Assembly: GCA_020056635.1 (NCBI GenBank)
Contig: JAGVHI010000024.1
Coordinates: 2,317-66,316 of the forward strand
Source: an archaeon
Lineage (GTDB): Archaea; Micrarchaeota; Micrarchaeia; Anstonellales; Anstonellaceae
DNA length: 64,000 nt
Direction of reading: 5' to 3'
Positions 995 through 61,002 of the stretch are shown piece by piece. The notes below the pieces were generated by a model, which saw only the letters and a program-made list of their open reading frames with translations, made no database searches and was not told where the DNA came from. The first letter of the stretch is position 1, and every line of letters starts with the position of its first letter. The position numbers were made by a program, and so were the translations under genes.

Positions 995-2212
995 ATGGCC
1001 AGTTTTTTGAGGGAGGTCAGCACGGCCGGAGGCAAACGCGTGAAAGAGGCTTCTTTGAAAAAGATTGCCGGGTTTGCTGTTCCGCCCCAGGTGTGGCTCG
1101 CTGCCGAAATCCTGTTTTTGCTTTTCATCGCATGGCAGCTTTGGGACTTTGAGCTGTTCCTGCTTGTGATGGTCCCGGGCAAGCTTATCTTGGCGCTTAT
1201 TTTATTGCTTCGGGGCGTGGAGCATTTTGTGAAGGAGGGGAAAGCCGAACCGGGCCCGCAGCTTAAGAGAATTCTGGAGGTGCTCTCAAGCAGCAAGCTG
1301 CTCTATGCGATTTTGGTTCTGGCGTTTGCAGGCTATCTTCTGAGCAAGAGCGTGGTGTTTGGGTACCTGGTTGCGCTTGCAATCCTGCTCCTAGTGGCAG
1401 AAGAGATTGTGAGGGGGGTTGCGGAAGGAGGGCTGAAATCCGAATTGCGCGAAACGAGAATTGCGATTTATTTTGCGCTCGGGCTTTGGTTCGGAGCCGG
1501 CTTTTTGCTGCAGACAACTTCCCCGATAAACGCGATTGTTTCATGCTCAATGCTTCCAGCCATGGAAAGGGGGGATTTGGTGCTGCTGCATGGAGGGGAG
1601 GTGAACGCGCCTGCTGTGCTGATGTCGGATGCCGAGGCTATGATGATTGGCAAGAACGCAACAGTGCAGTTCGGGAACCGGAGCATTGAGGTAAAGGGCT
1701 CGATGTATGCGCATTGCGTATTGAACAGGAATGACAGGACGTGCGCTGAGTTCATTGCAACCCCGGAAGGGTTTGTTGAGAAAAACGGGCCGCTTGAGTT
1801 CAGGTATTCGAAATGCGAGAGGTATTTTCCAGGAAGCGGCGCAAGCAATTACGGGCCTTGCGTGACTTCCATTTATTACAATGGGGAGAAAGTGACAAGC
1901 GGGAAGGTGGGCGATACTGTGGTGTATGCACCCAAGAGCGGGGATTTGTTTGCAAGGAGCGGGGATATCATACACAGGGTGTTTTTGGAAATCGAGACCC
2001 CGAAAACGAAGTATTATGTGATTAAGGGGGACAACAACCCTGTTGCGGATTTGCAGGTTTACGATTCAAGGTTTGGCGGGAACTCAATTGCCGAGGGGAA
2101 ACAGCTCAAAGGGAGGGTGCTGTTTAGGATACCAATGCTTGGCTACTTCAAATTGTTCCTCTCCGGGTTTGTCGAAGAGGGTGAAAGCTGCAATTCCTAC
2201 CTCAAATATTAA
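995..2212 (+). CDS. Archaeal-type signal peptidase I (Sec11/S26B-like) with long N-terminal multi-TM extension
   Basis: Catalytic-box-like motifs SCSMLPAMERGDLVLL, GDIIHRV and IKGDNNPVAD. About 170 aa of hydrophobic helices precede the domain. First in-frame ATG is at 995; the ORF track starts at TTG 980. Confidence 0.6.
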   Translation: MASFLREVSTAGGKRVKEASLKKIAGFAVPPQVWLAAEILFLLFIAWQLWDFELFLLVMVPGKLILALILLLRGVEHFVKEGKAEPGPQLKRILEVLSSSKLLYAILVLAFAGYLLSKSVVFGYLVALAILLLVAEEIVRGVAEGGLKSELRETRIAIYFALGLWFGAGFLLQTTSPINAIVSCSMLPAMERGDLVLLHGGEVNAPAVLMSDAEAMMIGKNATVQFGNRSIEVKGSMYAHCVLNRNDRTCAEFIATPEGFVEKNGPLEFRYSKCERYFPGSGASNYGPCVTSIYYNGEKVTSGKVGDTVVYAPKSGDLFARSGDIIHRVFLEIETPKTKYYVIKGDNNPVADLQVYDSRFGGNSIAEGKQLKGRVLFRIPMLGYFKLFLSGFVEEGESCNSYLKY

Positions 2213-18057: not shown

Positions 18058-18065
18058 TTTAAATA
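18058..18065 (+). promoter_or_regulatory. TATA-like box for the tRNA-Tyr/tRNA-Asp unit
   Basis: TTTAAATA ends 27 nt upstream of the tRNA-Tyr 5' end. Confidence 0.5.
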
Positions 18066-18091
18066 GTTTGAGCACCCCTAACTTTTCTTAT

Positions 18092-18320
18092 CCCGCCATA
18101 GCTCAACCTGGCTAGAGCGCCTGGCTGTAGTCTGCCAAATCGGCCTTATGCGATTGCGCATGTGGTCATCAGGAAGTTGTGTGTTCAATAGCCCTTTTCT
18201 CTCTCCGAGAGAAAAGCCCTCGTGGAAAAGAGAAACCATTTGGCGAAAAATATCCGCTTCGCGCGGTTTTTTCGCGCTGATAAAAGTCTCTTTTCGGCTG
18301 AACCAATCACACTGGCGGGA
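18092..18320 (+). tRNA. tRNA-Tyr (anticodon GUA) with two introns (229-nt gene)
   Basis: Acceptor CCCGCCA/TGGCGGG with the archaeal C1:G72 pair and discriminator A. D arm GCTC-AACCTGGCTA-GAGC. Anticodon stem CCTGG/TCAGG, loop CTGTAG|intron 18131-18167|A. T stem GTGTG/CACAC, with the T loop TTCA|~18188-18304|AAT interrupted. Confidence 0.8.
18188..18304 (+). repeat. tRNA-associated structured element, copy E1 (T-loop intron of tRNA-Tyr)
   Basis: Modules: CCCTTTTCTCTCTCCGAGAGAAAAG hairpin, GGAAAAGAGAAACC purine tract, GCGAAAAATATCCGCTTCGCGCGGTTTTTTCGC hairpin. The junction is ambiguous by 1-2 nt because of flanking A residues. Confidence 0.7.
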
Positions 18321-18357
18321 TTTTTTAAACCTACAACAGCATATGGAAGAGCCACTT

Positions 18358-18511
18358 GCCTCGGTAATGTAGTGGTCTAGCATTCCGGCCTGTCGCAAGG
18401 CCCCTTTTCTTTCTTAAAAAGAAAGAAAATGCCCCTGGGTTCAAAAGAAAGAAACGGATCCAGCAACCTTGCAGAAAGTCGGCAACCCGGGTTCGAATCC
18501 CGGCCGAGGCG
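18358..18511 (+). tRNA. tRNA-Asp (anticodon GUC) with 81-nt canonical-position intron
   Basis: Acceptor GCCTCGG/CCGAGGC, discriminator G. Anticodon stem CCGGC/GTCGG, loop CTGTCG|intron 18396-18476|A. T arm CCGGG-TTCGAAT-CCCGG. Intron ends pair as GCAAGG/CCTTGC. Confidence 0.85.
18396..18476 (+). repeat. tRNA-associated structured element, copy E4 (short form, tRNA-Asp intron)
   Basis: CCCCTTTTCTTTCTT-AAAAAGAAAGAAAATG hairpin plus AAAAGAAAGAAAC purine tract. The third hairpin module is absent. Confidence 0.6.
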
Positions 18512-18524
18512 CTCCTTTTTCGTT

Positions 18525-36158: not shown

Positions 36159-36307
36159 AGGGCCTTTCTTTTCCTCCGGAAAAGAAACCCCCGAGAAAGA
36201 AAAGAACCATGACCGCGAAAAATATCCGCTTTTCGAGCAGGTTTTTTCGCCCAAGAAAATCGCCATGTCATTAGCTTTTTTATCTCTCGTCTCGAAATCA
36301 GAGTTAT
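36159..36307 (+). repeat. tRNA-associated structured element, copy E2 (flanked by duplicated tRNA-Thr 5' end)
   Basis: GGCCTTTCTTTTCCTCCGGAAAAGAAAC hairpin, GAGAAAGAAAAGAACC tract, GCGAAAAATATCCG...GGTTTTTTCGC hairpin. Its 3' part TTATCTC..CAGAGTT is shared with copy E3. Bounded by TGCCCCTGTAGC on both sides. Confidence 0.65.
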
Positions 36308-36403
36308 GCCCCTGTAGCTCAGCAGCAGAGCGCCTGTCTTGTAAGAGCATAACGCCCAATTCAGGAAAACAGGAGGTCGCGAGTGCAATCCTCGCCGGGG
36401 GCT
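36308..36403 (+). tRNA. tRNA-Thr (anticodon UGU) with 24-nt canonical intron
   Basis: Acceptor GCCCCTG/CGGGGGC. D arm GCTC-AGCAGCA-GAGC. Anticodon stem CCTGT/ACAGG, loop CTTGTA|intron 36344-36367|A. T arm GCGAG-TGCAATC-CTCGC. The D and T loops are atypical. Confidence 0.8.
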
Positions 36404-60720: not shown

Positions 60721-60768
60721 GCTATCATTCCTTTGTAACCATGGTTACATCAGCATATTAAAATAAAA

Positions 60769-60975
60769 TGGACTGGATGGGATTTCTGGGTGGCTAAAAC
60801 TCTGAGATAAGAAATATTTCTGGGTGAAAAAACCTGAGCGCGTGGCGCTCGGATATTTTTCATGCTCCCGGTTCTTTTCTTTCCCAGGGCTTTCTTTTCG
60901 CGGAGCGAAAAGAAAGGCCTGAACCCATGGCCTCTTCGTTGCGAACGAAGCGATCTACCGCTGATCTACCAGCCC
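60769..60975 (-). tRNA. tRNA-Ala (anticodon CGC) with 135-nt T-loop intron
   Basis: Acceptor GGGCTGG/CCAGTCC with G3:U70, discriminator A. D arm GATC-AGCGGTA-GATC. Anticodon arm CTTCG-TTCGCAA-CGAAG. T stem ATGGG/CCCAT with T loop TTCA|60785-60919|AAT. Confidence 0.8.
60785..60919 (-). repeat. tRNA-associated structured element, copy E3 (T-loop intron of tRNA-Ala)
   Basis: GGCCTTTCTTTTCGCTCCGCGAAAAGAAAGCC hairpin, GGGAAAGAAAAGAACC tract, and TGAAAAATATCCGAGCGCCACGCGCTCAGGTTTTTTCA hairpin. Confidence 0.7.
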
Positions 60976-61002
60976 AATAGAGGTAATTCTGCCTCCGAAG
61001 AC

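Follow-up and report, generated by a model that had tools for sequence, protein, structure and literature searches.

A three-exon tRNA-Tyr(GUA) gene of a Micrarchaeota archaeon with a copy of a repeated, structured element as its T-loop intron

In the 64,000-nt stretch of DNA analyzed here, to which we refer as a whole as the window, positions 18092 to 18320 are confirmed at the sequence level as a real tRNA-Tyr(GUA) gene of 229 nt with three exons and two introns, both of which are of the protein-spliced type with predicted cleavage. We have high confidence that this locus is the working, and probably the only, tRNA-Tyr(GUA) gene of a Micrarchaeota archaeon and that its three exons are spliced by an epsilon2 EndA together with the ligase RtcB; transcription, cleavage, and ligation in vivo are what we infer from the observations described below. 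The 117-nt intron in the T loop is one copy of a repeated, structured, and apparently mobile element, and this repeat nature was not seen in the preliminary description of the locus. The gene layout is already known for the lineage, while the cargo of the intron and the turnover of this cargo at a fixed site are less ordinary.

Anatomy and detection of the tRNA-Tyr gene

The gene and its flanking elements are arranged as follows:

18058 to 18065, plus strand: putative TATA-like box TTTAAATA, 26 nt 5′ of the mature start
18092 to 18130, plus strand: exon 1, 39 nt, tRNA positions 1 to 37, ending at G37
18131 to 18167, plus strand: intron 1, 37 nt, at the canonical position 37/38 (ARAGORN intron call)
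18168 to 18188, plus strand: exon 2, 21 nt, tRNA positions 38 to 58
18189 to 18305, plus strand: intron 2, 117 nt, in the T loop at position 58/59, copy of a repeated ~105-nt element
18306 to 18320, plus strand: exon 3, 15 nt, tRNA positions 59 to 73, ending at A73 (CCA not encoded)
18321 to 18326, plus strand: putative terminator, a T6 run directly 3′ of A73

The box and the terminator are called from sequence and their roles in transcription are presumed; TTTTTAA or TTTAAATA is also present ~27 to 30 nt upstream of other tRNA genes in the same genome. Exon 1 contains the 5′ strand of the acceptor stem (CCCGCCA), the D arm, the 5′ strand of the anticodon stem, and CUGUAG. Exon 2 contains A38, the 3′ strand of the anticodon stem, the variable loop AAGUU, the 5′ strand of the T stem (GUGUG), and UUCAA, and exon 3 contributes AU, the 3′ strands of the T stem (CACAC) and of the acceptor stem (UGGCGGG), and the discriminator A73. 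Joining the three exons results in a 75-nt tRNA (CCCGCCATAGCTCAACCTGGCTAGAGCGCCTGGCTGTAGATCAGGAAGTTGTGTGTTCAAATCACACTGGCGGGA) with C1:G72, A73, the anticodon GUA, the T stem GUGUG/CACAC, the T loop UUCAAAU, and the anticodon loop CUGUAGA, in which the conserved tertiary bases U8, A14, G18G19, A15/U48, G53:C61, U54U55C56, and A58 are all present. C1:G72 together with A73 is the tyrosine identity set for archaeal and eukaryal TyrRS; the spliced tRNA-Tyr carries this set, which is unchanged in 12 orthologues.

The locus was missed by ARAGORN with default settings, by Rfam at gathering scores, and by Rfam at E<=10 on the region. Likewise, a search of the whole genome with RF00005 gave no match at the tRNA-Tyr locus, and ARAGORN made no call on the 229-nt precursor. 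Upon removal of the 117-nt T-loop intron from the precursor, ARAGORN reported a 75-nt tRNA-Tyr(gta) with the 37-nt canonical intron. The preliminary description had assembled the exons by hand into a normal archaeal tRNA-Tyr (C1:G72, GUA, GTGTG/CACAC) by taking out 37 nt after position 37, and this assembly is borne out by the ARAGORN call and, for the first intron (18131 to 18167), also by the same site in the orthologues. In an unbiased screen, every BHB-like interval of 10 to 220 nt was excised from the non-coding and tRNA-flanking parts of the genome (~170 kb), and ARAGORN was run on the resulting 40,509 products. This screen recovered the tRNA-Tyr with the excised interval C21:20505-20621, which corresponds to window positions 18189 to 18305 (117 nt). 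A relaxed BHB filter that included the central and inner helices only led ARAGORN to make numerous false calls at the borders of intact tRNAs, and calls from this filter were kept only if they had a full second exon set.

Based on these searches, the genome contains ~39 tRNA genes (14 found by ARAGORN without intron handling and ~27 interrupted; these counts are approximate). T-loop introns of 66 to 135 nt are present in at least eight of the genes, also an approximate count, i.e., those for Tyr, Ser-CGA, Arg-UCU, Leu-CAG, Ala-CGC, Phe-GAA, and Val-CAC and one further gene. Using BHB screens and BLAST, we found no second tRNA-Tyr gene in the assembly, which is 78.8% complete; an uninterrupted tRNA-Tyr(GUA) copy, which the preliminary description had named as grounds for rejecting its reading, is thus not present in this assembly. 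In the relatives that are at least 90% complete and carry the T-loop intron (G004, G016, and G022), every BLAST match falls in one tRNA-Tyr gene.

The tRNA-Tyr gene and a tRNA-Asp gene are located in a gap of 524 nt that is flanked by two genes on the minus strand, of which one is of the DUF475/TerC type and the other encodes a class I methyltransferase. Two open reading frames overlap the tRNA-Tyr gene (18078 to 18398 on the minus strand and 18148 to 18372 on the plus strand); a coding role was rejected based on the lack of a Pfam match and the intergenic position. The downstream gene at 18358 to 18512 is tRNA-Asp(GUC) with G1:C72 and G73. Its 81-nt intron at 37/38 (18396 to 18476) carries a short version of the hairpin-plus-purine module described below. 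When long introns were allowed, ARAGORN called 18358 to 18512 as tRNA-Tyr; this call is ruled out by G1:C72, G73, and the tRNA-Asp(GUC) obtained once the BHB-defined intron is removed. The Tyr-Asp tandem is conserved among relatives, and in G004, the tRNA-Asp is uninterrupted and the hairpin module begins right 3′ of its discriminator (L006, ~1130 to 1170, minus strand).

Orthologues, splice junctions, and endonuclease

We searched 40 genomes from this GTDB family by BLAST with the spliced tRNA-Tyr as the query and read 12 loci in full; in silico splicing gave a tRNA-Tyr in all 12. The exons are nearly invariant across these orthologues, with exon 1 being identical at 39/39 positions in G004, which belongs to another genus and in which both introns have diverged. 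Two stems have compensatory changes across the introns, i.e., C6:G67 to G6:C67 in G020 and G023, and C28:G42 to U28:A42 in G010, G022, G028, and G064. The T-loop intron is present at the same site in 11 of the 12 orthologues with a length of 42 to 161 nt and is lacking in G001. Judged by exon pattern, it is also absent in G007 (the genus of G001), G002, G008, and G017 (genus g3), G005 (g6), and G003 (g4). Other members of g2, g3, and g6 do carry the intron, which means that three genera each include genomes with and without it. Outside this family but within the order, every T arm that was matched lacks an interruption (G038, G048, and G059).

At the T-loop junctions, we identified the following elements of a BHB motif:

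18183 to 18186, plus strand: GUUC (tRNA positions 53 to 56), one strand of the 4-bp central helix, pairing with GAAC at 18300 to 18303
18190 to 18193, plus strand: AGCC of the inner helix, pairing with GGCU at 18296 to 18299
18300 to 18305, plus strand: GAAC plus CA, the 3′ half of the central helix together with the two bulged bases that precede the 3′ splice site

The bulges comprise 3 nt on the 5′ strand (AAU) and 5 nt on the 3′ strand (CAAUC), and GUGU/ACAC follows the 3′ bulge. The predicted junctions, AA↓U and CA↓AUC, are each 2 nt past the central-helix strand, with the bulges on opposite strands. Thus, the motif has the relaxed 3-4-5 form and departs from the strict 3-4-3 hBHBh′ geometry. 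In an alignment of the 11 orthologues with the intron, 90.2% of the cells of this motif are paired compared with 33 to 45% if the partners are slid, and the motif has 13 double-change cells with a covariation score that was reached by none of 500 shuffles. The GUUC/GAAC central helix is paired in 97.7% of the cells, three of the four pairs of the AGCC/GGCU inner helix have compensatory changes among the orthologues, and the end of the intron, GAAC followed by AA or CA, is kept in all 11 regardless of the cargo. The unconstrained fold of the 229-nt precursor has a free energy of −88.2 kcal/mol (z = −4.6; 0 of 200 shuffles as good) and pairs the acceptor stem and the T stem; intron 2 alone has a folding z of −4.2. 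Forcing the T-loop BHB results in a structure 1.8 kcal/mol above the minimum free energy.

The central helix of intron 1 is weak in this genome, as CUGU (positions 32 to 35) and GUGG form one G-C and three G-U pairs; in 11 relatives, it consists of CUGU/GCAG, and 2 nt separate it from A38. Forcing the intron 1 helix and the T-loop BHB together places the structure 6.3 kcal/mol above the cloverleaf-constrained fold. Positions 57/58 and 58/59 are not separable as the T-loop junction from the sequence alone, since an intron at 57/58 (18188 to 18304) gives the identical spliced product. However, the spacing of a helix and then 2 nt at the canonical intron, applied to both strands, points to 58/59 (UUCAA↓U...CA↓AU). 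The T-loop intron of ~117 nt at either position that had been proposed from the exon assembly is therefore exactly 117 nt and best placed at 58/59. As both motifs differ from the strict 3-4-3 form, both introns would need an enzyme of relaxed specificity.

The host assembly has a size of 1.10 Mb in 27 contigs, and its only EndA is encoded by one 399-aa ORF (C11:23001-24200). Residues 9 to 399 align end to end with residues 4 to 387 of the ARMAN-2 epsilon2 enzyme (PDB 4FZ2; E=5.3e-130), and the protein has two matches to tRNA_int_endo_N (PF02778, N-terminal) and two to tRNA_int_endo (PF01974, catalytic). Based on this architecture, the protein is predicted to be an EndA of the epsilon2 three-unit type (alphaN, alpha, and betaC), and its length fits the ~390 aa expected of this type. 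The motifs with the catalytic Tyr, His, and Lys (FRIYF, IHSKH, and SVKKTF) have the same letters as in 4FZ2; the ARMAN-specific loop reads GTYKAEQR rather than GTYKVSEH, with the K161-equivalent lysine kept. The roles of the catalytic residues and of K161 are from PMC3488258, where the lysine of the ARMAN-specific loop confers cleavage of a relaxed T-loop motif. Cleavage of relaxed BHB motifs by the homodimer has been shown for the ARMAN-2 enzyme only (PMC3239211). A gene for an RtcB ligase is present at C5:14481-15782 (581 bits). The closest relatives of the EndA are from Micrarchaeota MAGs, some labeled Anstonellaceae, with 76 to 80% identity, and the host is a DPANN archaeon of the ARMAN type (Micrarchaeota).

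These results agree with the expectation in the preliminary description of a splicing endonuclease with relaxed specificity, as the sole EndA is of the epsilon2 type and aligns with that of ARMAN-2, and of an ARMAN-type lineage. The further claim that the T-loop intron constrains both the lineage and the RNA-processing machinery holds in that the enzyme was found; the constraint is weaker than claimed, because the layout has been published for this lineage (PMC3239211).

A repeated element in the T-loop intron

The long introns of the genome resemble one another. Using an nhmmer profile built from five long introns and a cutoff for full copies of E<1e-7, we identified at least 16 full copies of a ~105-nt element in the 1.1-Mb genome, and intron 2 of tRNA-Tyr matches this family with E=3.8e-28. 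With a covariance model, 16 copies in this genome and 5 in that of G004 scored >=67 bits, and shorter relatives were detected in other genera and families. An exact word of 23 nt is common to the tRNA-Tyr copy and the Glu-CUC intron, and one of 21 nt to the tRNA-Tyr copy and the Leu-UAA intron. Global pairwise identity between copies is uninformative (75% for shuffled controls), and nhmmer E-values and exact words were used instead. The copies are distributed as follows:

Introns at 37/38: Glu-CUC, Glu-UUC, Leu-UAA, and Gly-UCC
T-loop introns at ~56/57: Leu-CAG, Ala-CGC, Ser-CGA, Arg-UCU, and one further gene
Intron at 58/59: Tyr
Outside introns: one copy directly 3′ of the tRNA-Lys discriminator, copies upstream of two tRNAs, and four free-standing copies

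In the tRNA-Tyr copy, we recognized three parts:

18194 to 18216, plus strand: hairpin 1, consisting of the pyrimidine strand CUUUUCUCUC (18194 to 18203), a loop, and the purine strand R1 GAGAGAAAAG (18207 to 18216)
18225 to 18235, plus strand: second purine strand, R2 GAAAAGAGAAA, which reads as R1 reversed but not complemented (mirror image)
18242 to 18277, plus strand: domain 2, the helix GGCGAAAAA/UUUUUUCGC around AUAUCC plus an apical hairpin followed by GG, with a T6 run at 18267 to 18272

Hairpin 1 is present in all element copies in several sequence variants. Among 26 copies with at least six sequence variants, the score for the mirror relation between R1 and R2 is 8.8 within the same copy and 5.7 with other copies (0 of 20000 permutations), a test that overstates independence in that the copies are related. 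In domain 2, 6 of the 10 predicted pairs have compensatory changes among 16 copies. An intramolecular triple helix of the purine type, i.e., a pyrimidine-purine hairpin plus an antiparallel purine third strand, needs a mirror-image purine strand, and R2 both mirrors R1 and changes with it. Alternatively, given the low complexity of the tracts, R2 and the pyrimidine strand could form 7 Watson-Crick base pairs.

The element is present beyond introns. In other genera, the core of the module is found in a tRNA-Ala intron, directly 3′ of a tRNA, and directly 3′ of a stop codon. Copies start from the first base past the discriminator of tRNA-Lys in this genome (G000) and of a tRNA in G002, and one copy starts at the stop codon of a protein gene in G023 (C8:28618-28733 for G000; L095, 1500 to 1560; and L090, 1500 to 1560). 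These extra-intronic copies support that the module is not confined to introns. Tentatively, and as a possible rather than a probable reading, we suggest that the interior of the intron is an undescribed self-folding module with a triple-helix-compatible core and a covarying second helix, and that this module may be a mobile or selected unit in BHB introns, tRNA trailers, and gene ends of Micrarchaeota with a turnover faster than that of the intron site.

We found no match of the intron or the element in Rfam, even at E<=10, no match of the domain-2 motif in viral contigs, and no account of such a module in the literature that we searched. A group I or group II intron was rejected because there was no Rfam match and 117 nt is too short, and a box C/D guide RNA because the intron has no C box (RUGAUGA) and no Rfam match. 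The tRNA-Trp intron of Haloferax and other Euryarchaeota is a carrier of a box C/D guide RNA. It resembles the intron described here in being a long (~100 nt) BHB intron with a structured RNA interior that has its own role; by contrast, the element in the tRNA-Tyr gene lacks C/D boxes and an Rfam match, is present in multiple copies, and is not tied to one tRNA.

The T6 run of domain 2 (GGTTTTTTCGC) is kept in all 16 copies, including those that interrupt essential tRNA genes. As such T runs usually cause archaeal RNA polymerase to terminate, transcriptional read-through must be assumed for the T-loop intron. Another element copy in the window (36159 to 36269) is located upstream of a tRNA at 36308 to 36403 that we read as Thr(UGU), and it is preceded by an 11-nt copy of the 5′ end of that tRNA-Thr (GCCCCTGTAGC). 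This displaced tRNA-Thr start is resembled by a perfect 18-nt copy of the tRNA-Tyr 5′ end in G028 (G028:C71:2013-2030), which lies 1.6 kb from the real gene and is the sole extra BLAST match in that genome.

The cargo of the orthologous T-loop introns differs between genomes. The interior is the hairpin-plus-purine module in this genome, G004, G020, G023, and G028, a second family (CCCTTTTGCTCGCTCCAGATGGGCACGCTCG...) in G064, of the CCTAGGGGG type in G010 and G029, and made up of other sequences in G016, G022, and G031. Thus, the introns at 58/59 have at least four unrelated cargoes, and all that these interiors have in common is the last six bases (GAAC plus 2), which are needed to pair with the exon. 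We note that a second, unrelated intron family, CCCTTTTGCTCGCTCCAGATGGGCACGCTCGCAAAAGCGTTCACGGAAAA, forms the canonical introns of tRNA-Ile(GAU) and tRNA-Arg(CCU) in this genome (C9:6023-6221 and C8:31601-31798). The same family is the canonical tRNA-Tyr intron in G010 and G028 and the T-loop tRNA-Tyr intron in G064 (L113, L114, and L119 are the tRNA-Tyr loci of G010, G028, and G064).

Processing pathway, alternative readings, and known systems

In the pathway that we propose, a single precursor of ~230 nt would be transcribed from the TATA-like box to the T6 run after A73, reading through the T6 run of the intron, and would fold its acceptor, D, anticodon, and T stems. BHB-type motifs would form at both junctions, i.e., CUGU/GUGG at 37/38 and GUUC/GAAC in the T loop with the inner helix AGCC/GGCU. 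The single epsilon2-type EndA, presumably tolerant of relaxed motifs, would cut 2 nt past each central-helix strand at 37/38 and 58/59. RtcB would then ligate the three exons, with circularization of the introns by RtcB being probable, and end trimming and CCA addition would come last.

Three other readings of the locus were considered. It is improbable that the locus is a dead tRNA-Tyr gene with a mobile element inserted in its T loop and that the functional gene is located in the fifth of the genome missing from the assembly. In favor of this reading, the repeat to which the intron belongs is also found outside genes, the intron contains a T6 run, and 78.8% completeness leaves room for such a gene. 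However, the exons are under strong constraint, as is evident from the identical 39-nt 5′ exon in another genus despite diverged introns, and compensatory changes maintain stems whose halves are in different exons. Moreover, the splice-motif helices of the intron are conserved and covarying, relatives with the same intron that are 90 to 94% complete show no second full tRNA-Tyr gene, and in this genome, the same element resides in other essential tRNAs (both Glu isoacceptors, Leu, Ala, Arg, Ser, and Phe).

BHB-type enzymes can join separate RNAs (PMC4033280), and the gene could, in principle, give two transcripts, of which the first would end at the T6 run at 18267 to 18272 and the 3′ piece would start from a promoter inside the element (AAAAATAT), with the halves being joined in trans as for the split tRNAs of Nanoarchaeum. 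In agreement with this reading, the element has the A/T-rich motif GCGAAAAATATCC without variation; we nevertheless consider two transcripts very unlikely. The candidate box is ~15 nt upstream of the T6 run, and a start ~25 nt downstream of the box would be at or just past this run; the motif is unlike the TTTAAATA/TTTTTAA boxes upstream of tRNA genes in this genome, and AUAUCC is within a helix that covaries as RNA. In addition, orthologues with unrelated cargoes (e.g., G031 with a 42-nt intron) have neither feature, and their junctions are unchanged. That the tRNA-like assembly merely reflects chance short matches put together by hand, as its escape from default ARAGORN and the Rfam tRNA model might suggest, can be regarded as refuted, given that the unbiased screen recovers the locus, that its exon structure is common to 12 orthologues, and that both ends are paired in the unconstrained fold of the precursor.

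T-loop introns, several introns per gene, and an epsilon2 enzyme have already been described for ARMAN-2 (Fujishima 2011, PMC3239211). The archaeon described here resembles ARMAN-2 in belonging to the same phylum and in having an epsilon2 endonuclease, relaxed-BHB T-loop introns, and multi-intron genes, but the tRNA (Tyr) and the site (58/59) are different, and the intron is 117 nt with a conserved repeated element compared with 13 and 25 nt for the two assayed ARMAN-2 substrates (PMC3239211). Its EndA resembles the 4FZ2 enzyme (Hirata et al. 2012, PMC3488258; PMC12397907) in the full-length alignment, the loop lysine, and the catalytic motifs; the loop differs (GTYKAEQR, not GTYKVSEH). In general, tRNA introns are mostly <100 nt (PMC4033280).

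For Thermoproteales, families of similar introns at different tRNA positions (Fujishima 2010, as cited in PMC4090602) and multi-intron tRNA genes with transposed introns (Sugahara 2008 and Fujishima 2010, as cited in PMC4090602 and PMC4033280) have been described. We made the observations by which transposed introns of this type are recognized, in that a similar intron is present in different tRNAs and at different positions and its presence varies among close relatives. As far as Thermoproteales are summarized in these citing articles, the two systems are alike in that presence and absence differ between closely related genomes and that a BHB is required at the junctions. They differ, on the same basis, in phylum and in the enzyme (alpha2beta2 there and epsilon2 here), and the element in this genome has considerable length and extensive structure and is also present immediately past tRNA 3′ ends, past protein genes, and as free-standing copies.

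The tRNA-Tyr site offers a clean comparative case, as position 58/59 is empty or has unrelated cargo in close relatives and the splice-motif bases are constrained. Such cases are the snapshots of intron gain called for in reviews of the field (PMC4033280). Provided that the three-strand core of the intron does adopt a triple-helical structure, it would represent a new type of natural nucleic-acid fold with a link to tRNA processing.

Automatic annotation of MAGs of this kind will badly under-report tRNAs, with tRNA-Tyr and others being wrongly listed as absent. We also observed that in the tRNA-Ala(CGC) gene of the window (~60768 to 60976, minus strand), the uninterrupted ARAGORN call (60902 to 60975) is wrong at the 3′ end, and its Rfam match covers model positions 7 to 64 only. 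This gene has a T-loop intron of ~118 to 135 nt that is a copy of the element (~60786 to 60920), and the alanine identity pair G3:U70 is present only in the spliced form.
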